From contig JAGOQI010000004.1 of NCBI GenBank assembly GCA_017991515.1, positions 1-60,809 on the forward strand: a stretch of DNA of 60,809 bases, read 5' to 3'. This document shows, in pieces, positions 28,604-57,145 of the stretch (its first letter is position 1; each line of letters opens with the position of its first letter). The position numbers and the translations under genes are program-made. The DNA comes from Minisyncoccota bacterium (GTDB taxonomy: Bacteria; Patescibacteriota; Minisyncoccia; Phycocordibacterales; UBA9973). The notes below the pieces were generated by a model, which was not told the origin of the DNA, did not search any database, and was given only the letters and a program-made list of their open reading frames with translations.

Positions 28604-28616
28604 AAGACAAGTATAC

Positions 28617-28657
28617 GAGGTTTGACCTCCCCACTCAAGATAGTGGGGAGGTTTGAC
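28617..28657. repeat. REP-like hairpin, copy 4 (CCTCCCCAC-N8-GTGGGGAGG) with a GAGGTTTGAC direct repeat on both sides
   Basis: arms 28626-28634 / 28643-28651; opposite orientation to copies 1-3. Confidence 0.85.
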
Positions 28658-28663
28658 AACTTT

Positions 28664-29293
28664 TTATTGAGGCTTTTTTACTCTCAAATATCCCAAAAAT
28701 AACAATACTACACCAGCAACAGCGACCCATATTTTAATATTATTAGGCAATCCTACAGAATATGACAAGGCAAGACAAAGTGGCAATGTTCCGACAAAAG
28801 TAGCAATAGTGTAAGATCTCAACTTCATATCAGTAAAAAGTCCTAGAGCATAGCTAACAAAGTCAACAGGTACAGCAATTCTAAATATAATGACTGCAAT
28901 AAAAAGATTATGGCTTGGTATACGGCCTTCAATCCATCTTAGTTGTTTGTCACTAATAAATTTGTTCACTACATTGCGACCGTATTTTTTTGAAATATTA
29001 AAAGCAATTATTGCCCCTATAGTCCATCCAATACTTGTTAAAACAGCAGTAAGAAACGGACCCCATAATGTTACAGCTAAAGGTAGAGCAGGTAATAAAG
29101 TCACTGGCCCCATTACAGTTGCCACTATAAGACCAAAGAGATATATCAAAACACCTAAAATAGGAAATTTTTTAATAAATGACTGCAAATACTCTGCATA
29201 AGTAGAACTAAGATAAGACATTAAAATAAATGCCCCTGTTACGGCAATTATTATCAATAAGCTTTTAATTTGATTTTTGTTCATTTTTATCAA
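28664..29293 (-). CDS. DedA / TVP38-TMEM64 family membrane protein
   Basis: 209 aa polytopic; GPVTLLPALPL ... FRIAVPVDFVSYALG resembles the SNARE-associated (DedA) domain. Confidence 0.6.
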   Translation of the reverse strand: MIKMNKNQIKSLLIIIAVTGAFILMSYLSSTYAEYLQSFIKKFPILGVLIYLFGLIVATVMGPVTLLPALPLAVTLWGPFLTAVLTSIGWTIGAIIAFNISKKYGRNVVNKFISDKQLRWIEGRIPSHNLFIAVIIFRIAVPVDFVSYALGLFTDMKLRSYTIATFVGTLPLCLALSYSVGLPNNIKIWVAVAGVVLLFLGYLRVKKPQ

Positions 29294-30012
29294 AGCAAAG
29301 TGCTTAGTGTATAGTCCTGCACCAAACCTGTCTCTTCTGCTTTGGAAAAAACTTTTTTATACTTTGCGCCTTTTGTACCATTCACCCTCTTTTCACATTG
29401 TGCCCAAGTTTTATCGGCATAGACCTTACCACCAACAAGTGAAACATAAGAATAAGCTGGTCCAGAATTTTTAGATTTTGATGAAGATTTTTTAACTTCT
29501 GACTTTGGAGGATTTTCTTCGAGATAAGTTTTGTAATCTTTTAGAGAACCTTTGAAAGATTTTATTTTTTCAGAAAGTGCGGACTTTACTGCCAATTCAT
29601 CACACCTATCGTTATATATGTGACCACTGTGTCCTTCTACTTTATTTAGTTTCAAGTGTCTCCCAAGTTCATCGCGAAGTCGCAACAGTTTTTGCCATTG
29701 AGATTTGTTTTCTACTGGTTTTTTAGTAGTGGTTATCCAGCCATTTCTAACCCAGCCATCAAGCCAGCTTTCTATCCCTTTCAAAACATAAGTGGAGTCA
29801 GCATGTAGTTCTACTGTATAGCCTGCAAAATGCGACACTGCATAATCCAAACCTTTGATAACAGCCTCCAGCTCCATTTGATTGTTAGTAGCTGGGTTTT
29901 GTGCCCCAGCAAGCTCTATAACCTTACTATCTGTCATAAGTACTGCTCCCCATCCTCCTGGTCCAGGATTGCCTCTCGATGCTCCATCTGTATAAATAGT
30001 AAGTATTTTCAT
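29290..30012 (-). CDS. rnhA: ribonuclease HI fused to a C-terminal hybrid-binding (Cauli_VI-like) domain
   Basis: N-terminal part: YTDGASRGNPGPGGWG, NNQMELEA, DSTYV, HSGHIYNDRCDELA. C-terminal part: YSYVSLVGGKVYADKTWAQCEKRVNGTKGAKYKKVFSKAEE. Confidence 0.85.
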   Translation of the reverse strand: MKILTIYTDGASRGNPGPGGWGAVLMTDSKVIELAGAQNPATNNQMELEAVIKGLDYAVSHFAGYTVELHADSTYVLKGIESWLDGWVRNGWITTTKKPVENKSQWQKLLRLRDELGRHLKLNKVEGHSGHIYNDRCDELAVKSALSEKIKSFKGSLKDYKTYLEENPPKSEVKKSSSKSKNSGPAYSYVSLVGGKVYADKTWAQCEKRVNGTKGAKYKKVFSKAEETGLVQDYTLSTLL

Positions 30013-30019
30013 ACTTGTA

Positions 30020-31660
30020 TTATACCAAACCTTGGATTCTCACTCGGACTCCCCCTCTCCAACCTGCTTCAAGTGTTCCGGTAAATGAAACAATCGCTCC
30101 TGTAACCATTTTTTCTTTCATATCAGAGTCTGTAAAAAAGTTAAAAGCTGTAGCCTTGCCGAAAGCGTCTTCCAAGTTACATTCTAAATGTTCTTTGTTT
30201 TTACCAAACATCTTTGTGCTAACAATTTTCACATTTTCAAATAAAAATAATGGTTGAGTATTTCCTACTCCAAATGGCGCTAAGACTCGAACTTTTTGTA
30301 AATGTCTGACTGAAACAATACCCAAATTCATAGATATAGCATCAGTATTTTTCTGCTCTTGTGCAACATGTTCTACGCTTCCAATAGCTTTATTTAATTC
30401 TTCTTCTAAAAAATGTATTTTTTCTTTCTCTACAGCAAATCCTCCGGCTGCTTGGTGTCCACCAGCGTGTAGTAGCACTCCCTCAGGCAAAGCTTGAAAA
30501 ATATATGCGGCATGATGTTCGTCTAGCATGCGACATGAACCCTTGATAAATCCGTCACCACTCTCTCCCCAAACAAAAAAACTTCTGTTATATGCTTCCT
30601 GTAACTTATTTGCTACCAACCCTAGTACTGCCGGCCTCCAAGATAAATCCCCTAGCACCACTATCGCTGGTAACTCTCTGGTATCTAGTTTTTTGTGCGA
30701 CTCTTTTACGATACGAGCTACCAAAACTTTTCTTTCATTATTTATCTTTTCTAAATTCTTAACTATAGCCAAAGCTTTATTTCTATCATCGGTAGATAGA
30801 AGTTCAAATGCCAACATTGGGGTATCCATACGAGAAGCGGCATTAAGGCGAGGTGCGACAGTAAATGTAAGATCTGTCTCGGTCAAAGTTTCTGGATCCA
30901 TGCGTTGCTCTGCAAAGAGAGTTCGGAGTCCCACTCTGCGAGTTTTTTTCATAACCATCATTCCAAAACTTGCCAGCATTCTATTTTCTCCTATTAACGG
31001 CACCATATCAGATAATGTGGCAAAACCTACCATATCAAGTAGCCATTTCTCCCAACCTTCTTTTGCACCAAACTTCTCTCTATGTTTTTCTAAAAATGCA
31101 CAAACTAAATAAAATGCCATAGTAGCACCACATGGATCTTGGTTTGGATAAGTCCCTTTTTTCGGATGAACTACAGCTAATGCTGCTGGGTACTGCACTA
31201 GTGGCGCATGATGATCTGTAACAATAATATCTATCTCTCGACTTCGAGCATCAGCAACTTGGGCGATAGCGGTAATACCAAGATCAACAGTAATGATGAG
31301 TGAAACACCTTTTTCTTCTAATACATCAATACCTAAAGTACTCAGTCCATACCCTTCATCATGTCTATCTGGAATATAAACATGAACATTTTCTATATAT
31401 CCAATAGCTTTAAAAAAGTCTACCAATATCACCGCACCAGGAATACCGTCACAGTCGTAGTCAGAGTAAATACCTATTTGCTCACCGTCTTTTATAGCTT
31501 TATATATTCTATTTACAGCTATTTCCATATCTTCAAACAAAAACAAATCTCCTATTTTATATTCAGGAAATAAGAAACTTTTTTGGTCTGTTTCAGATAG
31601 ATTTAATCTATCTAAGAGTATTTTCTGTAACTGGTCCGGAGTTGGAGTGGTAGGCGTCAT
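30020..31660 (-). CDS. recJ: single-stranded-DNA-specific exonuclease RecJ
   Basis: DHH family motifs: DYDCDG, VTDHH, GGHQAAGG (DHHA1). Confidence 0.9.
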   Translation of the reverse strand: MTPTTPTPDQLQKILLDRLNLSETDQKSFLFPEYKIGDLFLFEDMEIAVNRIYKAIKDGEQIGIYSDYDCDGIPGAVILVDFFKAIGYIENVHVYIPDRHDEGYGLSTLGIDVLEEKGVSLIITVDLGITAIAQVADARSREIDIIVTDHHAPLVQYPAALAVVHPKKGTYPNQDPCGATMAFYLVCAFLEKHREKFGAKEGWEKWLLDMVGFATLSDMVPLIGENRMLASFGMMVMKKTRRVGLRTLFAEQRMDPETLTETDLTFTVAPRLNAASRMDTPMLAFELLSTDDRNKALAIVKNLEKINNERKVLVARIVKESHKKLDTRELPAIVVLGDLSWRPAVLGLVANKLQEAYNRSFFVWGESGDGFIKGSCRMLDEHHAAYIFQALPEGVLLHAGGHQAAGGFAVEKEKIHFLEEELNKAIGSVEHVAQEQKNTDAISMNLGIVSVRHLQKVRVLAPFGVGNTQPLFLFENVKIVSTKMFGKNKEHLECNLEDAFGKATAFNFFTDSDMKEKMVTGAIVSFTGTLEAGWRGGVRVRIQGLV

Positions 31661-35752: not shown

Positions 35753-36391
35753 CTATTGTTGAATTTTTAAATTACGGATAGCAACCTGTGTGCTAACCTC
35801 AAGAGTAGTAGGAGATTGATTAACATCAGGATCAATTCTTATTTTAACACCAATTAATCTAACATCAGCTAGTAAGCCGTTAGTAGAAGAGACGACTCCT
35901 CCTGACCCTCCTGTATATGTAGAGTCATAGTATGTAAAAATAGGTATGCCATCAGGAATATTCCTAACTCCGGTCATAAAAACTTGTGTTTTTTTATTTG
36001 AAACATTATAGATCAATGGTGTGCCTGTTGGTTTTATAGTTTCTTTATTAAGAGTTGTACCTGTAAGACTATATCTAATCCATTCTTTTAACCCGTCATT
36101 ATCAATATCGCTATAAAAAGTAAAGCTATTGTCTCCAATAGACTCTATCGGGTAAGAACCGCTATTAGAAGGACTTGCAGAACGAATCTCTGCTGTCATT
36201 GGTCGTAAAAGTTTTTGAGCACTATCTCCTGCAGTAAGGCTATTACTAAAATAACGATTAAAAGAAAATACATCTCTTTGAAATTTTGAAATAACAATAC
36301 CTAGTATTGAAACTATCGATATAGTTACAACTAGTTCCATTAAAGAAAAACCATGATTAAGGTGAGATTTGTATTGTTTCATATGTATCAC
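35753..36391 (-). CDS. prepilin-type N-terminal cleavage/methylation domain protein (pilin or pseudopilin)
   Basis: class III signal ...NHG/FSLMELVVTISIVSILG with Glu at +5. Confidence 0.75.
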   Translation of the reverse strand: MIHMKQYKSHLNHGFSLMELVVTISIVSILGIVISKFQRDVFSFNRYFSNSLTAGDSAQKLLRPMTAEIRSASPSNSGSYPIESIGDNSFTFYSDIDNDGLKEWIRYSLTGTTLNKETIKPTGTPLIYNVSNKKTQVFMTGVRNIPDGIPIFTYYDSTYTGGSGGVVSSTNGLLADVRLIGVKIRIDPDVNQSPTTLEVSTQVAIRNLKIQQ

Positions 36392-38138
36392 TACTTATTG
36401 TAATATCTTTCTGTGTTGTCGTATACCCAGTTTTTGAAATAGTTATTGTATATGTTCCAGAAGATAACCCTCCAAAGTCTATTTGACCTGGTGGTAAACA
36501 TCCTGATGTGTAAGTAATAGCTACATCAGAGATAGAAGGTGTTTTTGAAGTGTCTGTAGTCGAAAGAAAAACTTTATATCTTAAATATTGATCTCCTGCA
36601 TGAATAGAAGCTATATTACTTGTTGATGTTGTATAGAAAGTTGCGTCTGTTCCATCAGGACCAAGAAAATTCCATGTTGTATTATCTAAATTTGTAGCAA
36701 TTTGAAAACGAATAGGATTAGTTCCCATACCTGTTGGCTGACTAGTTGGAGACCATATTAGCTGTTGTAGTGTTGCAGGAGCACCAAGATTTATTGTAGA
36801 AGAAACAAGCTCCCCACTATTAACATAAGTAGAACCTGATGAATTTAATTTTATTTGTCCTGGAGCATTAGTATAATCAATACCACCATCCGTGCTAGAA
36901 AAACGGCTTTTATCAGTAAAATCAACCTGACCAGAACCTCCATTCCAATCAGTTTGAGATATAGAACCAATACTTGTTTGACCAGAGAAAGTCCCAGATG
37001 GCCCACTTATTCCAACCGTAGCATCGGCTATAGGTAAGCCTGCAAGTTCTGTAACTGCTACAACTAACCGACTACCTGAAACAGCCGGCTTAATAGTGAG
37101 AAATACATCTTGACTTGAATTAGGAGGAATAGAAAGTGGAAATACAGGATTTGTTCCTGCTATTTCATAAGTACTTCCAGAAAGATTTATTTTATAAGTA
37201 TCCCACTCTATATTATTAATAGTGTTTGAAACACCAGAAGCGCTGAAGGCAATAGTATTTTTTAAAACATTTGGAGTACCTATCAACTTACTCCCCACAA
37301 AAGATCCTGAGACTCCTGTAATACTCGCACATTGAGCTGACTGAACCTTAAGTGCTATTGAGCTTATAGTATCTATGGCAAAAGTTGTTTGGCTAACAGT
37401 ATTGGCTACAACAGTTATATGAGGCTTTACAGGATTTGGATTGCCGGATCCTCCGGGTAAATAAGTTTGATCTGATGAATAACCTGTTTTTGAAACAGAT
37501 ATAAAATATTTCTCAGCCGAAGGGGGAGCATCCACAATAGTAAGAACTCCTGCGGAGTCAGTTATATCTGAAAAGTTAATTGCGGGAGAAACAGAGTTGT
37601 TTATTATAGAAACATTGGCATTTGCTACAGGTATTCCATTGGCATCAATAACCTTTATTACTAAAGCACCATTACCATTTTCTGTTTCTAGGCTTTTAGG
37701 AGCAACAGTGCTGGTATATTCAACTGATACAGACTGCGCACAACTTGTACAAATAACCTTTACAACCATCAATTTATTATCTGCGGGAGAAAGATCGTTC
37801 GGTGTTCCCCCAAGAGTTCCGTCAGCAGGAAGATCTATGTTTCGAATTGTAGTATTTACTGAAAATGTAACATTACCTCTAGAAACATTTTTCGTAGCTG
37901 GGATAACACCACTTGGAATACCTGAAATTATTCCAACATTACTATATTGAAGATTCCTAATAAATTCTATTTGTTCACTAGCTATTTGCGTAGCAATAGT
38001 TTTTGTACGAATACGAGCAGAGAGTTCTACTACTTTGGCATAGAGTTGATAAATAGCTAAAGAAAAAATAACAAAAAAAGCTGCTGCGACTAAGGTTTCC
38101 ATGAGTGTTGTACCTCGTTGTTTACCCTTATATCTCAT
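36357..38138 (-). CDS. giant pseudopilin with carboxypeptidase-regulatory-like beta-sandwich repeats
   Basis: 593 aa; prepilin-like KQRG/TTLMETLVAAAFFVIF; repeats such as LVIKVIDANGIPVANANVSI..TDSAGV..ISVSKTGYSS and GTYTITISKTGYTT. Confidence 0.7.
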   Translation of the reverse strand: MRYKGKQRGTTLMETLVAAAFFVIFSLAIYQLYAKVVELSARIRTKTIATQIASEQIEFIRNLQYSNVGIISGIPSGVIPATKNVSRGNVTFSVNTTIRNIDLPADGTLGGTPNDLSPADNKLMVVKVICTSCAQSVSVEYTSTVAPKSLETENGNGALVIKVIDANGIPVANANVSIINNSVSPAINFSDITDSAGVLTIVDAPPSAEKYFISVSKTGYSSDQTYLPGGSGNPNPVKPHITVVANTVSQTTFAIDTISSIALKVQSAQCASITGVSGSFVGSKLIGTPNVLKNTIAFSASGVSNTINNIEWDTYKINLSGSTYEIAGTNPVFPLSIPPNSSQDVFLTIKPAVSGSRLVVAVTELAGLPIADATVGISGPSGTFSGQTSIGSISQTDWNGGSGQVDFTDKSRFSSTDGGIDYTNAPGQIKLNSSGSTYVNSGELVSSTINLGAPATLQQLIWSPTSQPTGMGTNPIRFQIATNLDNTTWNFLGPDGTDATFYTTSTSNIASIHAGDQYLRYKVFLSTTDTSKTPSISDVAITYTSGCLPPGQIDFGGLSSGTYTITISKTGYTTTQKDITISSDTYETIQISP

Positions 38139-38139
38139 A

Positions 38140-39357
38140 TTAATTTATAGAATCCATTATCGAATACATAGGAGAGAGCATAGAGATAGCAAAAAATCCT
38201 ACAGCCACACCAATAAATATCATTAAAACAGGCTCAATAATAGTCGAAAGATCTTTTGTTTTATTATCAACTTCTGTTTCGTAAAAAGTAGCTACTTCTA
38301 AAAGCATGTCGCCTAAATTTCCAGTTTCCTCTCCCACCTCTATCATTTCTCCCATCATCACTGGATAAAGCTTAGTCTGAGCTTTAAAAACAGAAGAAAT
38401 AGGAACACCTTTTTGAACAACCTCTTCAACTTCGGCTAAAACAGCTTTGTAATAAACATTTTGAAGAACTTCTTTTGTTATCCCAATAGCCCTCCCTATA
38501 GAAACTCCTGAACTAAGCAAAGACGACATAGTTCTAGTTGTTCTGGCGGTATTAACTTCTTTTACAATTGTTCCAATAACTGGCAATCTGATAACCAGCC
38601 AGTCTATTTTTCTTTTTACTTTTGCATTTTTAAGAGCAAAAATAACTATAAAGACAACACTCACTATTCCAAGAACTACAAAAAGGAAGTTGTTAGCCAA
38701 TGTGTCACTAATCCAAACAACTATTTTTGTTGAAGCAGGGAGCTCTGTTCCAAGCTCTTTGAAAGTCTTAGTAAGAGTAGGTACAACATAAACAAACATC
38801 AATATTCCTATGATAAAAATAGCGCCTAAAATAATAGACGGGTACATCATAGCGCTTTTTATCTTTTTATTAAGAGCGTAGCTTTTCTCAAGAGTGACAC
38901 CTATTTCAGACAAAGTATTTGGTAGTCCACCAGACTCTTCTCCTGCTTTAACCATAGCCACAAATAAGGCAGAGAAAACTTTTGGATATTTTGCCAAGCC
39001 GTCTGAAAAAGTTCCTCCTTTGTTAATAGTCTCAGATAAATCCTCAATAATTTGTTTAAAATATTTATTTCTTGTTTGTTTTGAAAGTACTTGCAATGCT
39101 CTAGAGATAGAAAGTCCTGCCTTAAGCATTCCTGACAAGTTCTTTGTCATCAAAATCTTTTCACTTAGTTTTATATTACCTGCCCCAAAAGAAATAGAGT
39201 TTAATTTACCTAAAAGTCCTCCAGAAGATTGGTTGATAAATATTGGGGTCAATCCTTTATTTCTAAGTTCATTTATAGCCTCAACTTTATCGCGAGCTTC
39301 AATAACACCTTCTGAAGCAGTATTGTTTGCATTACGAGCTTTATAAGAAAATTTCAT
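38140..39357 (-). CDS. pilC: type IV pilus / T2SS platform protein (GspF/PilC family)
   Basis: 405 aa, two T2SSF repeats, three TM segments. Confidence 0.9.
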   Translation of the reverse strand: MKFSYKARNANNTASEGVIEARDKVEAINELRNKGLTPIFINQSSGGLLGKLNSISFGAGNIKLSEKILMTKNLSGMLKAGLSISRALQVLSKQTRNKYFKQIIEDLSETINKGGTFSDGLAKYPKVFSALFVAMVKAGEESGGLPNTLSEIGVTLEKSYALNKKIKSAMMYPSIILGAIFIIGILMFVYVVPTLTKTFKELGTELPASTKIVVWISDTLANNFLFVVLGIVSVVFIVIFALKNAKVKRKIDWLVIRLPVIGTIVKEVNTARTTRTMSSLLSSGVSIGRAIGITKEVLQNVYYKAVLAEVEEVVQKGVPISSVFKAQTKLYPVMMGEMIEVGEETGNLGDMLLEVATFYETEVDNKTKDLSTIIEPVLMIFIGVAVGFFAISMLSPMYSIMDSIN

Positions 39358-39409
39358 ACTTATATAAGTGTATCAAATTTTTAGTTTGTTTGTGTGTGAA
39401 ATATTTATT

Positions 39410-41158
39410 TTACTCACTAACTACACGCAATACTTCGTCGATAGTAGTGTTGCCTTGTATCGCTTGGAAAATACCGTCTTCAATCATAGTCATCATTCCC
39501 TCTTTTTTCCCTTGACCTTCTATTTCATCTGCAGTTCCACCACGGAGAATTATTTCTTTGATAGCTGAGCTTACCTTTAGTGCTTCGTGAATACCAACAC
39601 GGCCTTTATATCCATCTTCTGACTCTTCGCTACTTTTTGCTCGGAAAAATGGTATTTCTTTCCAAGGTGTTCCTGGTTTTATTATTTTTTCATTTTCCAA
39701 AAATGGTCGGAGGTGATCCATGTCTATAACATCACTTAGTGCTTTAAGTTCTCCGTCTGACAAGAAGTACTGCTCTTTGGCATTTGTTAGTCGTCGCACC
39801 AATCGTTGTGCCACAATAACTTTCGCAGTTGAAACGATAAGAAATGGTTCTACTCCCATATCTATAAGTCTCGGTACGGCACCAGCAGCACTATTGGTGT
39901 GGATAGTTGAAAGAACTAAGTGACCAGTAAGTGCGGCATTAACAGCCAAAGAGGCAGTTTCTCCATCTCGAATCTCTCCCACCATAATAATATTAGGGTC
40001 TTGTCGAAGAAGCGCTCGGAGTCCGTTGGCAAAAGTCATACCTATTTCACTCTTAACTTGTGTTTGATTTATACGAGGCATTTGATACTCAATAGGGTCT
40101 TCAACAGTTGATATATTTACTTCTGGAGTGTTCAATATATCGAGCATGGTGTACAAAGTTGTTGTCTTACCTGAACCAGTTGGTCCTGATGCTAAAACAA
40201 TACCTGAGTGTTGTTTCATTCCTTCATGAATTCTTTCCAAACTCTCTCCATGAAAACCAAGACCTTCCAAAGTAAAACCATGAGAGCCTTCCCTCAAAAT
40301 ACGAATAACCGTCTTTTCTCCATAATAAGTTGGCAAGGTTGAGACACGGAAAGAAACCGGCATTTCATCCATCACTATTTTAAATCGTCCATCTTGTGGC
40401 AATCTCTTTTCATCAAGCTTCAGGTTTGAAAGTACCTTGATACGAGCTGTTACTGCTGGAGCTGCTTCTTTAGGTAGCAACATGGCATCATGAAGTATTC
40501 CATCTATACGATATCGAATTATTAAATTCTCATCACTTGGTTCTATGTGTATATCAGAAGTATTTTGAAGTATGGCATGAGAAATAAGACTATCGACAAT
40601 CTTAATCACAGGCAAATCCTCTGCCATTTCTTTCAAATCCTTCTCTGTTGTTTTGTCGTCCTTATCTTCTACTTTTTGAATACTACCAACCTCTTTTTGA
40701 ATAATAGAGTCAAACTCTGCTTGCAAACTTTTCTTGTATTGTAATAAAACACTCTTTATAGACTCGCTATCTGTAAGTCTTGGGAGTATTCTAAGGCCTG
40801 TTTTTTTCTTTATGAAATCAATAGCGGGAAGATTATCTATATCCAACATACATATTTCCAAGTCTGTACCCCGCTTTTTATAAGCGATAATGTTGTACTT
40901 ACGAGCAATAGCTTCCGGTATCATATGTAAAACATCTCTATCAATTTTCTCTTTTTCTAAATTTAAATAAGGAATACCAAGTACATAAGCATGTAGTTTT
41001 TGTAATTCAGACTCTTTGATCTTGCCAGAAGATAGTAAAAAATCAGAAAGGCTTGTACCTTTTTTAATTTTTTCTTTTTCAAATATAGCCAAGTCATCTA
41101 CTGATACTATATTTGTATCAAGTAACAAACTCTGAAGTTTATTTTCATCAACAACCAT
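39410..41158 (-). CDS. pilB: type IV pilus assembly ATPase (GspE/PilB family), lacking the tetracysteine motif
   Basis: N-terminal GSPII_E_N-like domain, Walker A GPTGSGKTT, Walker B IMVGEIRD, His box GHLVLSTIHTN; only one Cys in the whole protein. Confidence 0.92.
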   Translation of the reverse strand: MVVDENKLQSLLLDTNIVSVDDLAIFEKEKIKKGTSLSDFLLSSGKIKESELQKLHAYVLGIPYLNLEKEKIDRDVLHMIPEAIARKYNIIAYKKRGTDLEICMLDIDNLPAIDFIKKKTGLRILPRLTDSESIKSVLLQYKKSLQAEFDSIIQKEVGSIQKVEDKDDKTTEKDLKEMAEDLPVIKIVDSLISHAILQNTSDIHIEPSDENLIIRYRIDGILHDAMLLPKEAAPAVTARIKVLSNLKLDEKRLPQDGRFKIVMDEMPVSFRVSTLPTYYGEKTVIRILREGSHGFTLEGLGFHGESLERIHEGMKQHSGIVLASGPTGSGKTTTLYTMLDILNTPEVNISTVEDPIEYQMPRINQTQVKSEIGMTFANGLRALLRQDPNIIMVGEIRDGETASLAVNAALTGHLVLSTIHTNSAAGAVPRLIDMGVEPFLIVSTAKVIVAQRLVRRLTNAKEQYFLSDGELKALSDVIDMDHLRPFLENEKIIKPGTPWKEIPFFRAKSSEESEDGYKGRVGIHEALKVSSAIKEIILRGGTADEIEGQGKKEGMMTMIEDGIFQAIQGNTTIDEVLRVVSE

Positions 41159-41165
41159 TGTTTAT

Positions 41166-41174
41166 ATTGTATCA
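41166..41174 (-). promoter_or_regulatory. extended -10 box (TGaTACAAT), 7 nt upstream of the pilB ATG
   Basis: minus strand TGATACAAT-ataaaca-ATG. Confidence 0.55.
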
Positions 41175-41195
41175 CGCCAAAAAAATAAGATAGAA

Positions 41196-41226
41196 ACAAA
41201 AAAAGCTCACAATGAGCTTTTTTTGT
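41196..41226 (-). terminator. bidirectional-shape terminator after the 41234-42601 gene
   Basis: AAAAAAAGCTCA-TTG-TGAGCTTTTTTT. Confidence 0.8.
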
Positions 41227-41233
41227 TTCTAGA

Positions 41234-42601
41234 TTAAAACTCTATAAATAAGAATTTTTTTCTAAGAGTTACACTTGCTTGGTCTGAAGCAGATAAGCTT
41301 CCATTTACACAGTTAATAGTATAAGTAGTATTTCTAGTTGGACTAACATCGATAGACCCATTCAACGCTCCCGCTGTAAATCCTATTCCTGAACAAGAAG
41401 TAGCTCCTGAAGATATCCAGCTAAGAGTCGAGCTTTCACCTGAAGCAATTTTTTCTGGTGTTGCAATTAAGTCTACTGTTATGCCTGGACCAGCAGTAAG
41501 TACAGTGACTGTTTTTTGGTCTACTGCATTTCCAAAAGGTCCAGTACACGACAGTGTAAATGTAGTAGTAGATGTTAGTGTTCCTGTTGAATCATGAGGA
41601 TAAGAACTAGTAACAGGTTTTGGTCCTGTCCAAGACCCGCCACTAGCTGTACAAGATGTAACATTAGAACTTATCCAAGATAGTGTCGCTGAGCCACCTG
41701 AGAATATAGACATTGGAGAAGCATTGAGTGTTACTGTTGGACCTTTTGTAGATGTCTCACAAGTACTACCATTCCAAGCTAAACCACTATCACAAGTAGC
41801 ATTTGCAGTAGACTGAGCAAGTTCTATAGAATTGTGATAAAGATAAAATGTAGTTGCGCCATAACTAAGAACAGTAGACTGAGAACCGCTAGCAAGAGGA
41901 GATGGTGTGAAAGAAGAAGGAGCACCTGTATTTCTAGTAATGGATGTTGAACTTGCTGTAAGATCAGCCGTTGTCCAATCAACAGTGCTATTACAATTAG
42001 CAGCTCCTGAGGCAATATTACAAGAATTTGCCAAAAGAGTACCTGTAGGTCCAGTATTATTTGGTACTACAACATTTTCAAAAGATAACCATCCAACAAT
42101 CTCACTCCCCCAAGCATAACCAAAAACATTATCACCTGAACGAGTTGCTCCATAAGAATACGGTGCTTGTTGTACACCTGCAGTATTTCTATCATGGTCA
42201 TTTGTTGAAGAGAAAGATACCCATCCATCCCAACCTTCACTTGCAGATGTAAATCTTGCCCAACCTTTTAAAGAGTTAGAGATCATTTGTGCTCCACAAG
42301 TACCAGCTGTACCTGCTGGACAACCAGTATTAAAATCAAGCCAGCCAATATTGTCATTCCACCCGTAACCTGTCCATGAGCCGTCAGTGCTTTGCATAAC
42401 ACTATATGAAACAGTTCCACATGTTGAGTTATTACTACAGTTTAAACTAACCCATCCAACAGTATCTGACCACAACCAACCAGTAACAGGAACTTCTCCG
42501 GCAGCAGAAACATTTTTTTGATTCAAATAGTTAAAACCAATATAAAAACTAGATACTACTAGAATAGATGCAAACAATAAAGTTATATATTTTTTAAACA
42601 T
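41234..42601 (-). CDS. secreted repeat protein: four Trp-rich repeats plus three Ig-like Ser/Thr-rich modules
   Basis: signal/anchor; GWLWSDTVGWVSLN, GYGWNDNIGWLDFN, GWDGWVSFS, GYAWGSEIVGWLSFEN; then the modules ATLSWISSNVTSCTASGGSW / STLSWISSGATSCSGIGF. Confidence 0.65.
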   Translation of the reverse strand: MFKKYITLLFASILVVSSFYIGFNYLNQKNVSAAGEVPVTGWLWSDTVGWVSLNCSNNSTCGTVSYSVMQSTDGSWTGYGWNDNIGWLDFNTGCPAGTAGTCGAQMISNSLKGWARFTSASEGWDGWVSFSSTNDHDRNTAGVQQAPYSYGATRSGDNVFGYAWGSEIVGWLSFENVVVPNNTGPTGTLLANSCNIASGAANCNSTVDWTTADLTASSTSITRNTGAPSSFTPSPLASGSQSTVLSYGATTFYLYHNSIELAQSTANATCDSGLAWNGSTCETSTKGPTVTLNASPMSIFSGGSATLSWISSNVTSCTASGGSWTGPKPVTSSYPHDSTGTLTSTTTFTLSCTGPFGNAVDQKTVTVLTAGPGITVDLIATPEKIASGESSTLSWISSGATSCSGIGFTAGALNGSIDVSPTRNTTYTINCVNGSLSASDQASVTLRKKFLFIEF

Positions 42602-42603
42602 AA

Positions 42604-42882
42604 TTAATTTTTATTAAGCGCCCCTTTTAATAAAACCGCTCTTTCTTCGTCTGTTAAAGGCTTAGAATCTTTTTGCATTTCTACTATGATAGCTTCTTTT
42701 TGTTCTTCAGGAATAGTTGTAGTATCACTATTTAAAGTATTTAATATCTGAACCTTTTCTTCATAAGTAGGCTCACTACTTTTGTTCCCATTTTTATATT
42801 TTATAACTAAGAAAACAATAACTAAAATAAAAATAATTGAAATAATCCAAGGTAAAATACTTTTTTTGTCGGTGTCTTGCAT
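42604..42882 (-). CDS. small single-pass membrane protein
   Basis: MQDTDKKSILPWIISIIFILVIVFLVI...; start chosen at the ATG 8 nt downstream of a TGtTAATAT box (42891-42899); its stop lies 2 nt from the next start. Confidence 0.5.
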   Translation of the reverse strand: MQDTDKKSILPWIISIIFILVIVFLVIKYKNGNKSSEPTYEEKVQILNTLNSDTTTIPEEQKEAIIVEMQKDSKPLTDEERAVLLKGALNKN

Positions 42883-42957
42883 ATACATATATATTAACAC
42901 ACAAAAGAACTACACAAAACAATATCCACAGCTTTTACACATTTTGAACTAGAAAAA

Positions 42958-42987
42958 TTGACAAATAGCACAATTCCTGTATATAAT
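42958..42987 (+). promoter_or_regulatory. consensus sigma70 promoter TTGACA-18-TATAAT
   Basis: TTGACA at 42958-42963 and TATAAT at 42982-42987, about 75 nt upstream of the 43063 ATG. Confidence 0.6.
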
Positions 42988-43062
42988 ATATTCAAATGTA
43001 CGAGAGTACTTTGACTTAAATTCTTGGCAATATCGCCTCATCTTCTAAATTTTTAAATAATC

Positions 43063-43974
43063 ATGAAAAAGATTTTAAACGCTTTGGGGATGAGCGTGTT
43101 GTTCATCTCTATATTTTTAGTGTCTTGTGGTAAAGGTTCTAACACCATAACACCACAACCAGATCCTCCACCTACACCTCCTTCCCCTGTTTATTCCATC
43201 AACTCAACAACTGTTTCTGATATTACTCAAACATCAGCTACAGTAACTACGACAGTTGGTGCTACGAACAGTGGAAATATCTATTCGAAAGGATTTTATT
43301 GGTCTGAAACCAGTCCGATTCCTGGAGAAAGTGATAATTTCTTAGATGGTGGAAGCGGTGCCGGAAGCATGACCAAATCTATCTCAGGGCTTTTGGCTAA
43401 CAAACCTTACTATGTAAGAGCTTGTTATAAAAAAAGTTCCACAGATAGTTGGACTTGGAACAGTGAAGTTAGCTTCACAACCTTGCCTGTACCTCCAAAG
43501 TACAGCGAAGGTCAAGTTATGCCCGATGGTTTCACAATCAATATTGTTTACAACAATGGTAACACTGCCAAAGGTGTTAAAAATGTTGGTGGTATCAACG
43601 GCTACGGGTTTGGTTGTATCGGTACTCCTACAGGTGCGACAGGTACAGCTATCGGAACAGGTATCACAAATACCAATACCATAGCATCTATTTGTCCTGT
43701 TAGTGCTGCCAAGCTTTGCTTGGATGCTGGAGGTTATCTTCCATCTACAGATGAAATGAAAGAGCTCTGGGACAAAAGAAATGTTGCTGGTATATCAGCT
43801 GTATTTACTACTTCAGAAGGTTCATTTTGGACTTCTACTGAAGTAGATGGTACTTATGCCAAAGCATTTGATTGGGGACAAGGAGTTTCTTTCACAAACT
43901 GGAAACAATCTGGACCAGGAAGTGCTCCACCATTAACAAGAGCAGGAGTAATAGCTGTAAAAAATTACAATTAA
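43063..43974 (+). CDS. lipoprotein with an Fn3-like domain and a DUF1566 (Lcl C-terminal-like) domain
   Basis: lipobox FLVSC; Pro-rich linker; ITQTSATVTTT...GFYWSE...KPYYVRAC..SFTT; C-terminal part GYLPSTDEMKELW ... FWTSTE. Confidence 0.6.
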   Translation: MKKILNALGMSVLFISIFLVSCGKGSNTITPQPDPPPTPPSPVYSINSTTVSDITQTSATVTTTVGATNSGNIYSKGFYWSETSPIPGESDNFLDGGSGAGSMTKSISGLLANKPYYVRACYKKSSTDSWTWNSEVSFTTLPVPPKYSEGQVMPDGFTINIVYNNGNTAKGVKNVGGINGYGFGCIGTPTGATGTAIGTGITNTNTIASICPVSAAKLCLDAGGYLPSTDEMKELWDKRNVAGISAVFTTSEGSFWTSTEVDGTYAKAFDWGQGVSFTNWKQSGPGSAPPLTRAGVIAVKNYN

Positions 43975-43990
43975 TTTTTTACTTAAAAGT

Positions 43991-44027
43991 AAATCCCGAC
44001 TTCAAATTGAAGTCGGGATTTTTTTAT
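43991..44027. terminator. bidirectional terminator between convergent genes
   Basis: AAATCCCGACTTCA-AA-TTGAAGTCGGGATTTTTTT. Confidence 0.85.
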
Positions 44028-44047
44028 TTATATATTTTGTTTTTATA

Positions 44048-44671
44048 TTAACAAGGCACTACTTCTGAACCTAGTTTAGATGAATTACTGTAGTTTCCAG
44101 GGACTATATTCCAAGCTCTGCTATCAGAATTTCTCTGAACATAACCCCACGAAGCTGGTACTTTTGTTTGTAGGTTTGCATCAAGCCACACATGAACACC
44201 AGAGTCTACTTGTGTCTCGCCTGTAGTATAAACAGTGGCAGGCGTTGCACAATTTCTTGAAACACTAACAGCAACACCATTAGAAACAGGAGGGAACCCT
44301 CCACCACCTCCTACAGTAGTCAAAAGGCAAGAAGTGAGTTTGCCTGTACTATCTGAACATACACCTGTAGCTACACTATTTGGATTTAAATTATTTATCT
44401 GAACATAACCACTTAAAACTTTTGCTCCGTCTGTTCTCCAAACAGCTAAATTATTTCCAGACATCAATCCTTTTGTTTCAAGCGTAATACCAATAGGATC
44501 AGTAGGAGTTCCACCTTTTGCTTGTCCAGTACTAGTAGTATTTATAAGACCTGAAACATCATTTGCTGGTGGATTGGCTGGAGCAGGGAAAGCTGAAGCA
44601 TACCGAACACCAAAACCTATAACAAGGATAACTAGGAAAGATTTTATTATGTCTAAATTTGTTTTTTTCAT
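44048..44671 (-). CDS. secreted protein P1: conserved PPxxNV/QxKGG N-module, Gly5 hinge, unique ~85-aa C-terminal domain
   Basis: signal ..RYASA/F; PANPPANDVSGLINTTSTGQAKGG; C.D...KL..C; GGGGG; ends in Cys. Confidence 0.7.
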   Translation of the reverse strand: MKKTNLDIIKSFLVILVIGFGVRYASAFPAPANPPANDVSGLINTTSTGQAKGGTPTDPIGITLETKGLMSGNNLAVWRTDGAKVLSGYVQINNLNPNSVATGVCSDSTGKLTSCLLTTVGGGGGFPPVSNGVAVSVSRNCATPATVYTTGETQVDSGVHVWLDANLQTKVPASWGYVQRNSDSRAWNIVPGNYSNSSKLGSEVVPC

Positions 44672-44689
44672 ATATTTATATTTTAAAAA

Positions 44690-45769
44690 TTAATTTGGAA
44701 CACTATTACCACAAGCTCTAATACCTACATATCCGTTTACTCCACCACTATAACATCCATCGTACAAGTAATAACCCGCACAACCCGGTATCGATGATGG
44801 ATTATTGAAATCAGGTGATTGGAAGTAGATTTGTCCAATATTACTACAGCCAGTAGGTTCTGTACCACCATTGCCAGGCTGAGCAAAAAGATATGGTGTT
44901 GTACTTACATCTAAACAAATATTTCCCGAGCCTGCTGCACAAACATTTTTATTGTGAACCAGATATCCGTCAGCAAAATATGTTCTATCTCCTGATAATT
45001 TGAAGTTAAACAGTGGTGTTGTTTCTGCTACTTGTTCACTTTCAATAGAATAAATATGAACTAATCCATTTTCTGTAATAAGAGTATCTCCAACAGCCAG
45101 TTGTGTTACTTCTATACCGATGTTCTCTTGTTTTGTTTTCTCTGGATTGATAGATTTCCAACCTTCTGTTGTTTTAAACGGGTGTTCTTCTGTTACGAAT
45201 GCTTTTTCGCCGTTGAAACCAAATATAATTCCGTCTGATTTAGGAGGTCTGTGATAGTCCAAAACAACATTATTTGTAGTTTCTCCTTTCAAAACATCGC
45301 CTATTTTTACATCTTGAATATTCTTTTTACTACCATCAGCCATTGTTACTAAAGTATCAGCTATGAAGCAGTTAAAAGCAGATGACCAAGATGTTCCGCC
45401 ACCTCCACCTCCACCTCCAATAGGTATCAAACAATCTGTAGTTAGTTTGTGTTCTTCATCTACACAAATTTTACGCTTGCCAGAAGTAGGGTGTAGATCA
45501 TCTATATATAGATTGCCAGATATAGTAGCGTTATTCCAAATAGCTAAACTATTTACTGCCAAGTTTCCTGAAACATCCAACATGGAACCAGATATAGGAG
45601 AACCTCCTTTTGATTGTTCAGTTGTTGTAGAGTTTAAAATATTAGCGACATTTCCGTTTGGAGGATTGCTTGTAGGACCAAATGCTGCATAAACATAGTT
45701 AAGCCCAAGACCAAAAACAACCATTAGAACTATAAATTTTATTTTGTTTAGTATGTTTATTTTTTTCAT
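44690..45769 (-). CDS. secreted protein P2: same N-module, Gly8 hinge, Hint/BIL autoprocessing domain, 86-aa Cys/Gly/Tyr-rich tail
   Basis: TSNPPNGNVANILNSTTTEQSKGG; CVDEEHKLTTDC; GGGGGGGG; Hint blocks CFIADTLVTMADG, VTEEHPF, GYLVHN. Confidence 0.8.
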   Translation of the reverse strand: MKKINILNKIKFIVLMVVFGLGLNYVYAAFGPTSNPPNGNVANILNSTTTEQSKGGSPISGSMLDVSGNLAVNSLAIWNNATISGNLYIDDLHPTSGKRKICVDEEHKLTTDCLIPIGGGGGGGGTSWSSAFNCFIADTLVTMADGSKKNIQDVKIGDVLKGETTNNVVLDYHRPPKSDGIIFGFNGEKAFVTEEHPFKTTEGWKSINPEKTKQENIGIEVTQLAVGDTLITENGLVHIYSIESEQVAETTPLFNFKLSGDRTYFADGYLVHNKNVCAAGSGNICLDVSTTPYLFAQPGNGGTEPTGCSNIGQIYFQSPDFNNPSSIPGCAGYYLYDGCYSGGVNGYVGIRACGNSVPN

Positions 45770-45788
45770 ATGTTTTTAATCTAACAGC

Positions 45789-46241
45789 TTATTCTATTAA
45801 ACAAATACTTGAGCAACCGTCCCCATTAGCAGTATTACCATCATCACACTGTTCAGCTTTTTCTATATAAGAGTTTCCGCACTGAGCATCACAAATAACA
45901 AGTTTATTGGAAGTATCTATACATACAGGACGAAGACCTGAAGTCCAAACACCTTGGTCTGAAGTCAAAGCACTTACAGTTACTTGATTTTCTACTGTCA
46001 TGTTCTGAATAACATATAGAACATTAGCAGAAAAAGTTTGAGCAACATCCAAAAGTGAACCCCTAAAAGAGCGTGAACCACCTTTTGATTGAGGATTTGA
46101 ACTAGTATTTATTGGACCAGAAACATTGTTTCCTGGAGGAACAGCTGTTGGAGCATTCCACGCAGCTAGAGCAATAGTACCGACAAAAAAAGTAGCAATT
46201 AAAAATTGTGTTAACAACTTCTTCAAATCAATATTTTTCAT
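45789..46241 (-). CDS. secreted protein P3: same N-module, then a myxococcal-type cysteine-rich repeat
   Basis: PTAVPPGNNVSGPINTSSNPQSKGG; CIDTSNKLVIC; CGNSYIEKAEQCDDGNTANGDGCSSIC. Confidence 0.7.
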   Translation of the reverse strand: MKNIDLKKLLTQFLIATFFVGTIALAAWNAPTAVPPGNNVSGPINTSSNPQSKGGSRSFRGSLLDVAQTFSANVLYVIQNMTVENQVTVSALTSDQGVWTSGLRPVCIDTSNKLVICDAQCGNSYIEKAEQCDDGNTANGDGCSSICLIE

Positions 46242-54442: not shown

Positions 54443-57145
54443 ATGTTAGAAAACAGAGAAACTTTTTCTTCGGGGTCACAAGAAGTATCGCATTTAGCAA
54501 GTGAAGCTCACAAGGCTTACACTATTCAAGAAGGTGGTCCTAAGACTCCAGAGGAAGCAACACTCTCAGCTATAGAAAAATATTCACGTGCAGAAGCTTC
54601 AGAATTTTTACATGAAGCTAGAGTCCTTCCAGAACACCAAGTAGAACATGTTGCACTTAGGCTTAAACCAGAGCCTCATGATAGAAAAGTTGAAGAACTC
54701 TTTGCTACAATGCTTGAAAAAGGCATCAAAAATGCCTTGGATATACTTCGTAAAATGAAAGATCCTCATTTAGAAGACGACTTTCATCGCTTCTTAGTCC
54801 AATATTTACATACTATAGGTGCTGTTCCAGGATTAAAAGAAAAAGACAATTTATATAAAGAACTAAACCACACTCTTTTCTCTGTGGCACTTCCTCCAGA
54901 AACAGAAGAAGTAGATTTCAAAAAGAAAGTTTCTGCCATGGGACAGTTTTATACTAGCTTAGTTTCACTTGTTGGACTTGAAAAAACTGTTTCTTTTGAA
55001 CTTGCTGTTGAACACTCTCGCAAAGATATTGTTGTATATGTAGCCATACCTAGAGAAAACATTGATGGTTTTGAAAAGTTTGTGCACTCATTTTTCCCTG
55101 GTGCTGCCGTAGAAGAAGTAGTGGACGATTTCAATATATTTGGACTCGAAGCACATTCTATTTCAGCTAGTGTTGCTACTTTGAAAGAGTCTCCTTTCAA
55201 ACCACTAAAAACATATTTAGATTTTGATAACGATCCTTTCTCTGGAACCCTCGGAGCGCTTGCACAGATAGCCGAAACAGGCGAAGGTTGTGCTCTTCAA
55301 ATAGTACTTTCTGAAAGTCATCACAAAATAGCCGACCGAAACAATATGATAATGTCTGAAGCCCAAAAAGGTGGAGCTCTTGTGAAAGACCTTTACAAAA
55401 AAGCTACCGAATCAATGCTTGGTTCTTTAGCAAAAGAGGCGTTTTCTTTATTTAAGAAAAAGGAAGAGGAAAAAGAAGAAGAAAAGAAAATAGACACCGA
55501 AGGAATAGAAATGTTCAAAAAGAAAAATGATTCTCGGGTAGTTGGAGCAACTCTTCGTATCATTACTTCTGCTAGTTCTACTGCTAGATCAGAACAACTA
55601 CGCAAATCTGTAGAAGCTTCTTTCGGCCAATACACTTATATCGGTGGTAACTCTATAGAATGGCAAGAATCCAAAAGCACATCTTTACTTGAAACTTGCC
55701 AAGCGTTTTCTTTTCGAACACAAAGTGAAAAACCTTTAGAACTCTCACTAAATGAAGTTTCAACAATGGTTCATTTCCCTACTAGCGTATCTTCTCCTCA
55801 CGAATTACAAAACAGTGGTGGCGCCAATGCTCCTGCCCCACTTGGAGCTTCAAAAAATGCTGATGGTGTATATCTTGGAACCAATACTTATCGTGGGCAA
55901 ACAACAAATGTCTTCTTGGGCAAAGAAGATAGAGTACGACACTGTTATGTTATTGGTCAGACAGGTACAGGTAAAACAACTATTCTGAAAAATATGGCTA
56001 TCCAAGATATCCAAAATGGCAACGGTATTTGTTTTATTGACCCACACGGCAACGATATAGAAGATATCTTGGCAAATATCCCCGCTGAGAGATTAGACGA
56101 TGTCGTCTACTTTGACCCAGCATATACAGCTCGTCCTATGGGACTAAACATGCTTGAATACGATGTAAATTATCCTGAGCAAAAAATATTTGTTATCAAC
56201 GAACTCCTCGGTATCTTCAACAAGCTTTTTGATATGAAAACTGCTGGTGGTCCTGCCTTCGAACAATATTTCCGAAACTCTGCTGGTCTTATCATGGAAG
56301 ATCCAGAAAGCGGATCAACACTTTTAGAGATCAGTCGTGTCCTATCTGACAAGGCTTTCAGACAAATGAAGCTCGCGAAATGTAAAAATCCTATTATCAA
56401 ACAATTCTGGGAAAATGCTGAAAAAACTACAGGTGAGGCATCACTTGCAAACTTTGTGCCATATATCACTAACAAGTTTGACCCATTCGTATCGAACGAC
56501 ATTATGCGACCAGTAATAGCTCAACAACACAGCGTACTGAACTTCCGGGAAATAATGGATAATAAGAAAATACTTTTAGTAAACCTTTCAAAAGGTCGTC
56601 TTGGCGATATCAACTCTCACCTTATAGGTCTTTTGTTAGTTGGGAAAATAACCATGGCTGCCCTATCTCGTGTTGATATGGTTGGTAAGGGACCAGTAAA
56701 TGATTTCTATCTTTATATTGATGAATTCCAAAATGTAACCACTGATTCTATAGCGACTATTTTGTCCGAAGCTCGAAAATACAGACTTTCTCTAACTGTT
56801 GCGCACCAATACATCGAGCAACTTGAAGAAACTATCAAAAATGCGGTCTTCGGAAATGTCGGCTCAATGATTATCTATCGCGTGAGTCCAGAAAATGCTG
56901 CAATTTTCGAAAAACAACTTACTCCAACATTTACTCCTGATGATGTGTTGAAACTCCAAAACTTTAATGCTTATGCAAAAATTTTAGTAAACGGTGTACC
57001 AGAGAAAGCATTTAACCTCAAAATCCCACCTCCACCAAAAGGTAACAACGATATTGCCGACAAAGTGAAGCAAATCTCCTACCTCAAATACGGACGGCCG
57101 AGAGAAGAAGTAGAAGCAGAAATCATGTCTAGATATCAAATCTAA
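54443..57145 (+). CDS. soluble VirD4/TraD/TrwB-like P-loop NTPase with a ~480-aa unknown N-terminal region
   Basis: 900 aa; Walker A GQTGTGKTT followed by CFIDPHGND; Walker B LYIDEFQN; ARKYRLSLTVAHQY; no TM helices seen. Confidence 0.7.
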   Translation: MLENRETFSSGSQEVSHLASEAHKAYTIQEGGPKTPEEATLSAIEKYSRAEASEFLHEARVLPEHQVEHVALRLKPEPHDRKVEELFATMLEKGIKNALDILRKMKDPHLEDDFHRFLVQYLHTIGAVPGLKEKDNLYKELNHTLFSVALPPETEEVDFKKKVSAMGQFYTSLVSLVGLEKTVSFELAVEHSRKDIVVYVAIPRENIDGFEKFVHSFFPGAAVEEVVDDFNIFGLEAHSISASVATLKESPFKPLKTYLDFDNDPFSGTLGALAQIAETGEGCALQIVLSESHHKIADRNNMIMSEAQKGGALVKDLYKKATESMLGSLAKEAFSLFKKKEEEKEEEKKIDTEGIEMFKKKNDSRVVGATLRIITSASSTARSEQLRKSVEASFGQYTYIGGNSIEWQESKSTSLLETCQAFSFRTQSEKPLELSLNEVSTMVHFPTSVSSPHELQNSGGANAPAPLGASKNADGVYLGTNTYRGQTTNVFLGKEDRVRHCYVIGQTGTGKTTILKNMAIQDIQNGNGICFIDPHGNDIEDILANIPAERLDDVVYFDPAYTARPMGLNMLEYDVNYPEQKIFVINELLGIFNKLFDMKTAGGPAFEQYFRNSAGLIMEDPESGSTLLEISRVLSDKAFRQMKLAKCKNPIIKQFWENAEKTTGEASLANFVPYITNKFDPFVSNDIMRPVIAQQHSVLNFREIMDNKKILLVNLSKGRLGDINSHLIGLLLVGKITMAALSRVDMVGKGPVNDFYLYIDEFQNVTTDSIATILSEARKYRLSLTVAHQYIEQLEETIKNAVFGNVGSMIIYRVSPENAAIFEKQLTPTFTPDDVLKLQNFNAYAKILVNGVPEKAFNLKIPPPPKGNNDIADKVKQISYLKYGRPREEVEAEIMSRYQI

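Follow-up and report, generated by a model that had tools for sequence, protein, structure and literature searches.

A type A BIL-like Hint domain followed by lysine in a predicted surface protein of a Minisyncoccota bacterium

What does a self-processing domain of the Hint fold do in a predicted surface protein where the residue that follows it is Lys rather than Cys, Ser or Thr? This question is raised by a 359-aa open reading frame (ORF) of a Minisyncoccota bacterium (assembly GCA_017991515.1), which lies in positions 1 to 60,809 of contig JAGOQI010000004.1, the 60,809-nucleotide stretch of DNA that we analysed as a whole and refer to as the window. A first-pass annotation, made from the sequence alone, had described a Hint/bacterial intein-like (BIL) domain that cannot splice, placed between a conserved N-terminal module (N-module) and a novel Cys-rich tail. 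Profile-to-PDB comparison, fold search and conserved catalytic blocks agree with the first part of that description: residues 134-273 are a genuine Hint/BIL-type domain, which matches the type A BIL domains in every property that could be tested and lacks the defining properties of inteins. From the sequence and by analogy with characterised domains we consider it fairly probable that this domain is active and that its main outcome would be autoproteolysis at both junctions, releasing the tail. Re-translation recovered the ORF, its motifs and all sub-coordinates exactly as first annotated, including Lys274 at the +1 position and with it the lack of a Cys, Ser or Thr nucleophile. The parts of the gene are as follows.

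44690..45769, minus strand: 359-aa ORF comprising signal peptide, N-module, Gly8 hinge, Hint domain and Cys-rich tail (stop codon 44690-44692)
45683..45769, minus strand: predicted signal peptide or signal anchor, residues 1-29, hydrophobic, MKKINILNKIKFIVLMVVFGLGLNYVYAA (read from the sequence)
45431..45682, minus strand: N-module, residues 30-113, ending in a C102...C113 pair and common to both flanking genes
45395..45418, minus strand: Gly8 hinge, residues 118-125, codons (GGAGGT)3 GGC GGA
minus strand: eight-residue linker TSWSSAFN, residues 126-133 (by re-translation)
44951..45370, minus strand: Hint (type A BIL-like) domain, residues 134-273, 140 aa, CFIADTLVTMADG...TEEH...ADGYLVHN (by profile, fold and conserved blocks)
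45368..45370, minus strand: Cys134 (Cys1, block A nucleophile)
45182..45193, minus strand: T193-E-E-H196 (block B, TxxH)
44951..44956, minus strand: H272-N273 (block G, terminal His-Asn)
44948..44950, minus strand: Lys274 (+1 residue)
44693..44950, minus strand: 86-aa tail, residues 274-359, six-Cys family T1 by family alignment (Cys277, 285, 308, 330, 339 and 353)

The first-pass annotation had staked its assignment on matches to Hint or intein profiles, and such matches were found. The single 359-aa sequence aligns with BIL2 (6Y75/6TMM) across the entire domain (E 1.6e-4), and a Hint profile built from 27 diverse homologous domains and searched against the PDB matched BIL2 (6Y75) at E 1.4e-16, the Clostridium thermocellum BIL (2LWY) at E 3.9e-13, the gp41-1 intein at E 2.7e-11, the Ssp DnaB intein at E 1e-8 and PI-SceI at E 1.3e-7. 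Each of the 27 profile members individually matches at least one model of the Pfam Hint clan. The AlphaFold model, computed with 92 aligned homologues, has predicted local distance difference test (pLDDT) values of 82-98 as 10-residue block means across residues 131-270, in contrast to the low confidence obtained for the N-module and the tail. When the domain model was compared with the PDB by Foldseek, all 50 matches at E<=1e-3 were intein, BIL, Vint or hedgehog/Hog structures, the best being BIL2 (6y75; E 8.8e-12, template modelling (TM) score 0.81, root-mean-square deviation 2.4 Å, 23% identity), with gp41-1 (TM 0.83), 2LWY (TM 0.74) and hedgehog 1AT0 (TM 0.67) among the others. Some relatives exceed the Pfam cut-offs that the window protein does not reach (Hom_end_hint 34.6 against 32.1; Vint 29.3 against 27), and NCBI already lists a few of the homologues as "Hint domain-containing protein". 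No record was returned when the exact sequence of the ORF was looked up, and a search of PHROGs gave nothing for the Hint protein beyond one weak match. The Pfam AXH model, which describes the ataxin-1/HBP1 module, also matches 21 of the 27 Hint domains (best E 5.5e-16; residues 134-232 in the window protein) and is nearly fully covered in some of them; this, together with the presence of ataxin-1 AXH structures among the profile-to-PDB matches, suggests that AXH is related to the Hint fold.

The catalytic positions are kept throughout the family. A homology search returned 133 proteins at E<=1e-3, nearly all from uncultured Nomurabacteria, Paceibacteria and Paceibacterota, of which the best is 99% identical to the window protein and the others that cover most of it are 36-64% identical. 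We took 117 full-length Hint units from these homologues, 31-99% identical to the window domain, and found C134 in 117, T193 in 111, H196 in 116, H272 in 117 and N273 in 113. This near-invariance of Cys1, TxxH and His-Asn is what one would expect of a catalytically active domain and not of a relic, and confirms that the motifs first noticed in the window did not arise by chance. The residue at -1 is variable and +4 is Cys in 70 of the 117 units, while +1 is Lys in 97, with Lys at +2 in 13 more and Thr at +1 in a single unit. The same lysine is found well beyond the initial homologues: a scan of one genome per species, queried with the C-terminal motif of the family, yielded 177 relatives, and +1 is Lys in 79 of the 92 complete units, spread over the Candidate Phyla Radiation (CPR), DPANN, Bdellovibrionota, Proteobacteria, Bacteroidota and Chloroflexota. 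Its near-invariance argues that the identity of the +1 residue matters, rather than the mere absence of a nucleophile.

Within the CPR these relatives belong to Nomurabacteria, Paceibacteria, Peribacteria, Gracilibacteria and SR1, and elsewhere they occur in DPANN archaea, Bdellovibrionota, Alpha- and Gammaproteobacteria, Bacteroidota, Chloroflexota, Omnitrophota and Planctomycetota. By raw counts the clade looks enriched in predatory, parasitic and episymbiotic lineages (Bdellovibrionota, Micavibrio, Rickettsiales, CPR, DPANN and Omnitrophota). Two Hint ORFs, from Peribacteria (L022) and SR1 (L029), appear in pieces under genetic code 11, probably as an artefact of translation, as these lineages read UGA as a sense codon, and not as pseudogenes.

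What surrounds the Hint domain is far less constant. N-regions and tails recombine freely around it, so that the window N-module is found in some relatives and unrelated N-regions in others, tail lengths run from 1 to 377 residues, and the Hint domain stays 52-99% identical to that of the window across differing tail families. Single-linkage BLAST clustering without composition correction lumps all Cys-rich tails together, and the families were therefore defined with stricter settings, under which the 82 tails of at least 30 aa fall into families of 25, 11, 9, 3, 3 and 2 members and many singletons, with an extra two-member family that has no cysteines. Every Cys-rich tail, whatever its family, opens with K-x-x-C...C-x3-6-C-[ILV]-[DN]. 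The window tail is no orphan, and to call it novel, as was first done, goes too far. It belongs to the T1 family of 11 sequences (78-98 aa, 38-55% identical), all of which have K1, D14 and five of the Cys; the sixth (C80) is lacking in a single sequence, which is truncated. The first-pass annotation had proposed to compare the tails of homologs for hypervariability; across the clade they form at least six families plus singletons, among which T1 is a small, conserved family. A T1 profile run without a word filter against 1.84 billion representative proteins found four genuine clusters, in all of which the His-Asn of a Hint domain immediately precedes the tail; the remaining seven matches were short multi-stretch matches to repetitive proteins. 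Local hidden Markov model (HMM) searches of 79 fetched loci and the window likewise placed the T1 tail only directly after Hint, as they did three other tail families in the fetched loci, and no carrier of a T1 tail without Hint was found among the 1.84 billion representatives or the 79 loci. Word-indexed searches with the tail alone or the N-module alone returned nothing useful, which reflects a limit of the index and is not evidence of absence.

In some proteins two to five Hint domains stand in immediate tandem, separated by spacers of K plus 0-4 residues. The longest case is a 4119-aa Bacteroidota protein of Mucilaginibacter angelicae (L024) with five Hints in a row, and three CPR proteins (P0013, P0086 and P0089) carry two or three. 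A set of proteobacterial members (L044, L048, L049, L060, L062-L070 and L077) has a signal peptide, a Hint domain near the N-terminus, HN-K and then a long acidic tail rich in Gly, Asp, Glu and Ser and devoid of cysteines.

The Gly8 hinge upstream of the window domain is present as annotated, and Tandem Repeats Finder reports its hexamer repeat as (CCACCT)x3.5 at 45399-45419 with 100% matches. However, a Gly run is absent upstream of Hint in 61 of the 117 units, so that the hinge is no feature of the family. The sole near-identical relative (P0001, two substitutions) carries the same Gly8; hence no length variation was seen, and the proposal that the repeat varies in length in frame finds no support in any comparison. 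The G+C content is 36% for the window and likewise 36% for the ORF. A helix at residues 6-29 of the AlphaFold model, together with the six conserved Cys of the tail, is in line with export, and we infer that a Nomurabacteria/Paceibacteria (CPR) bacterium exports the product by the Sec route as a modular surface protein, which may be cleaved after VYA.

Type A BIL domains reportedly go back to work by Amitai et al. in 2003, and the C. thermocellum BIL is reported to have Ala at +1 (Dassa et al. 2004). Domains of this type possess His-Asn and lack a +1 nucleophile, form an N-terminal thioester and are cleaved at the C-terminal junction by Asn cyclisation; cleavage products dominate, and the flanks are ligated at low yield when the freed alpha-amine attacks the thioester (PMC4031507). 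The window domain resembles them, including the C. thermocellum BIL (2LWY), in its N-terminal Cys, TxxH, His-Asn and missing +1 nucleophile, in its size of about 140 aa without an endonuclease, and in its location within variable regions of non-conserved secreted proteins. It ends in YLVHN and is therefore not a type B BIL, which would lack the terminal His-Asn. In contrast to known type A BILs, the clade has a near-invariant +1 Lys, its CPR domains precede Cys-rich K-x-x-C tails, and many of its members are C-terminal or tandem.

We propose that, after export through the Sec pathway and folding, Cys134, aided by T193 and H196, would convert the N133-C134 bond into a thioester by an N-S acyl shift, and that Asn273, aided by H272, would cyclise to a succinimide and cut the N273-K274 bond. 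Hydrolysis of the thioester would then free the N-module with its signal peptide or anchor, stalk and Gly hinge, while the 86-aa disulfide-rich tail would leave with Lys274 as its new N-terminus and probably act as an extracellular binding or adhesion module. A minor ligated product, in which the N-module is joined to the tail via the Lys274 amine, may also form. To say that the domain cannot splice was too strong: low-yield splicing is known for type A BILs that lack a +1 nucleophile (PMC4031507), and BIL2 makes a Lys isopeptide (PMC8616854).

BIL2, from the polyubiquitin-like BUBL1 locus of Tetrahymena thermophila, is the best match of the window domain in both sequence and structure, and its native form also has Cys1 and a terminal Asn, as follows from the C1A-N143A crystal construct. 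Its depositors report a reaction that ends in an isopeptide bond to the epsilon-amine of a Lys (PMC8616854, section 2.4), and Zn-dependent activation has been described for it. Unlike the window domain, BIL2 is eukaryotic and cytoplasmic and sits between ubiquitin-like domains, and its acceptor Lys is part of ubl5 or of other substrates, whereas the Lys of the window clade is at +1.

Two paralogues closely flank the Hint gene, at gaps of 19 bp upstream and 18 bp downstream, and all three genes encode the N-module and a signal peptide. An HMM of the N-module (PTxxPPxNNVxxxINxSxTxQxKGG ... C-x10-C) matches exactly these three ORFs in the window (E 6e-46, 2e-42 and 7e-38); Pfam, NCBIfam and the PDB contain no relative of the module, a profile search against the PDB gave no significant match, and the model of the module is of low pLDDT. 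Both flanking paralogues lack Hint and have other C-termini. The confinement of the T1 tail to positions after Hint and the recombination of N-regions and tails bear out the earlier statement that no conserved host protein is rebuilt from the flanks. Comparable arrays with a single Hint-bearing member occur at four other loci (L003, L006, L009 and L013). The array adjoins a type IV pilus cluster on the same strand (35753-46241 for both together), and the neighbours are listed here in descending coordinates.

45789..46241, minus strand: upstream paralogue, 150 aa, N-module and one cysteine-rich acidic repeat, no Hint (TIGR02232 1e-12, DUF4215 1.2e-6)
44048..44671, minus strand: Hint-less downstream paralogue of 207 aa, in which an unrelated C-terminal domain follows N-module and Gly5 (by N-module HMM)
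43063-43974, plus strand: 303-aa lipoprotein-like gene that separates the paralogue array from the pilus genes (Lcl_C-like and 'lipo-invert' tail matches, both weak)
41234-42601, minus strand: secreted protein of 455 aa, carrying GW...IGW motif repeats and a pair of Ig-like repeats (from the sequence)
39410-41158, minus strand: PilB
38140-39357, minus strand: PilC
36357-38138, minus strand: pseudopilin-like 593-aa protein
35753-36391, minus strand: prepilin-motif gene

A block of NusA/455-aa protein and N-module/Hint genes recurs in related genomes. It leads straight into pilB in four CPR genomes (L001, L006, L013 and L015), but into the TIM and PGK genes in four others, so that the pilus link is not universal. 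Outside the CPR, six members of the HN-K Hint clade carry the canonical prepilin N-terminal cleavage/methylation motif GF[ST][LM]xE (L041 6255-8420, L041 8420-10726, L047, L052, L075 and L078). They come from Bdellovibrionales, Bacteriovoracales, Rickettsiales and Planctomycetales, and the gene of one Planctomycetales member adjoins pilB and pilC. By sequence these six look like modular pilins with a C-terminal Hint domain, for which we found no published description; we regard the pilus link of the clade as a lead and not as a result.

The 455-aa protein also occurs in about 11 related loci, within the regions that were fetched, and, like the C-terminal domain of the 207-aa paralogue, has no Pfam match; nor did it match NCBIfam, while its Ig-like part matches a PHROG 'virion structural protein' family (E 6e-12). 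Homologues of the 303-aa lipoprotein-like gene adjoin the Hint gene in two relatives (L011 and L018). Genes for DNA uptake and processing lie near the pilus cluster (27143-31660), namely ComEC (27143-28603), a RecJ-like gene (30020-31660) and RNase H, and a 900-aa TraG/VirD4-like coupling ATPase is encoded at 54443-57145.

Several observations weigh against release of the tail by an active type A BIL-like domain. All Pfam Hint-clan matches of the 359-aa protein (Hom_end_hint, Vint, Hint and PT-HINT, accompanied by AXH) stay below the gathering score, the best being Hom_end_hint with 23.3 against 32.1, and PT-HINT (PF07591) reaching 14.5 against 27.7; no NCBIfam model fits, apart from a fragmentary intein match; and the window tail has neither a family match nor a PDB fold match, its model being of low confidence (pLDDT 64). 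Of the properties that define the Hint superfamily, the domain thus has the fold, the block A nucleophile and TxxH, and falls short of a curated model at gathering score. Moreover, plain C-terminal cleavage explains neither the near-invariant +1 Lys, nor why Lys is the last residue in 15 of the 17 proteins that extend only one or two residues past His-Asn, nor why the four of 117 units without a terminal Asn are also without the Lys. On account of this conserved Lys, amine-mediated ligation remains the main rival, which we judge unlikely. Here Lys274 would supply the nucleophile that resolves the Cys134 thioester, either by its alpha-amine after Asn cyclisation, as proposed for type A BILs (PMC4031507), which would yield a normal peptide bond, or by its epsilon-amine, for which the BIL2 isopeptide (PMC8616854) is a precedent. 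By either route the Hint domain would be excised and the N-module covalently joined to the Cys-rich tail or, in tail-less relatives, to a single Lys. Ligation would account for the joint retention of Asn and Lys in proteins ending ...VHN-K and for their joint loss, and immediate tandems (HN-K-x0-4-CF) would be harmless if each Hint splices out. Against it, cleavage outweighs splicing in the type A BILs that have been tested (PMC4031507), the independent shuffling of N-regions and tails gives no sign of selection on a particular N-module-tail product, His-Asn without a nearby Lys exists in four Omnitrophota paralogues and a few other proteins, and the joint loss of Asn and Lys rests on about two independent lineages. 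An alternative role for the Lys would be a salt bridge, for instance to E195 of TEEH; we looked for covariation between the two residues and found no informative signal.

The remaining explanations are less probable than ligation. That the domain is the pre-toxin Hint of a polymorphic toxin, with the tail as an antibacterial or anti-host toxin or bacteriocin-like peptide, appears very unlikely to us. As in Neisseria MafB, a constant Hint domain stands before variable C-terminal modules of a secreted protein with predicted autoproteolytic release, and PF07591 gives weak matches in 20 of the 27 profile members (best 4.5e-7). The window protein, however, scores below the PT-HINT threshold, the tails of six families match no toxin or other Pfam family, the downstream gene encodes a secreted paralogue and not a small cytoplasmic immunity protein, and a six-frame search of the whole window found no orphan Hint fragments or spare tails; the tails form conserved Cys-rich families with a common K-x-x-C start, with no spread of enzymatic toxin folds. 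We give just as little credence to a Hedgehog-like transfer, in which an external nucleophile such as an envelope amine, a lipid or a group on the surface of a target cell would attack the Cys134 thioester, so that the N-module or a pilin-like cargo becomes covalently attached and Hint plus tail depart as leaving group. Many relatives do carry Hint at the extreme C-terminus in a cargo-Hint architecture like that of Hog proteins, among them the six with prepilin N-termini, and the pilus genes beside the array, directly downstream of it in the four CPR loci, as well as the frequency of the family in predatory and episymbiotic lineages, would suit such a reaction. But Hog domains lack a terminal His-Asn and are followed by a sterol- or adduct-recognition region, of which the window protein has no counterpart; its His-Asn and Lys would be needless for transfer, its Hint domain is followed by a sizeable conserved 86-aa tail, it is not pilin-like, and the lifestyle enrichment, a matter of raw counts, may reflect sampling. 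A degenerate, silent Hint fold retained for a structural or binding role would be compatible with the sub-threshold Pfam scores and with the match to AXH, a non-catalytic module, yet we reject it as highly improbable, as the retention of C1, the block B T/H and HN in more than 100 diverged units across phyla is unexpected for a silent module. Almost certainly wrong, finally, is the idea of a canonical mobile mini-intein whose splicing would restore a functional host protein. The domain does share its fold and blocks A, B, F and G with class 1 mini-inteins such as gp41-1 and Ssp DnaB, which are among its best structural matches, but +1 is Lys and not Cys, Ser or Thr, the host is a non-conserved secreted protein with no conserved insertion site, no Hint-less protein among the 1.84 billion representatives or the 79 loci joins the N-module to a T1 tail, no homing endonuclease is present, and tail-less and tandem arrangements occur; on the strength of the +1 Lys and the lack of intein-less alleles we rejected this reading, and classify the domain as a BIL.

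Autoproteolysis at both junctions by a type A BIL-like domain is thus the reading we retain. The domain type as such is already known, and its occurrence in CPR bacteria and in a large uncurated clade spanning many phyla extends the range of type A BILs; that no Pfam or NCBIfam model captures the 359-aa protein at gathering score makes the clade useful for annotation, if unsurprising. What appears unusual within this known type, judged from sequence, is the near-invariant Lys right after Hint and the recurring link to pilus genes. A literature search linking Hint/BIL domains with CPR/Patescibacteria or pilins found nothing, and the papers searched contain no description of the near-invariant +1 Lys across phyla, of the CPR-specific K-x-x-C Cys-rich tails or of the association with pilus genes. 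We therefore raise, as a speculative and rather improbable suggestion, that the 'CF...VHN-K' domains constitute a distinct multi-phylum Hint clade in which the amine of the +1 Lys, instead of Cys, Ser, Thr or water, resolves the Cys1 thioester in pilus-linked or pilin-like surface proteins. If true, this would mean nucleophile-free or isopeptide ligation in surface proteins of prokaryotes that live as episymbionts or predators (CPR, DPANN and Bdellovibrionota), a reaction that might link surface modules together or cap them once they are exported, or attach them covalently to a partner. Should the +1 Lys be the thioester acceptor, nature would possess an extracellular chemistry for protein ligation or isopeptide formation that needs no ATP. 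Protein engineers could clearly put it to use, and it might be relevant to the way in which surface and pilus proteins are built or deployed by ultra-small episymbionts and by predatory bacteria.

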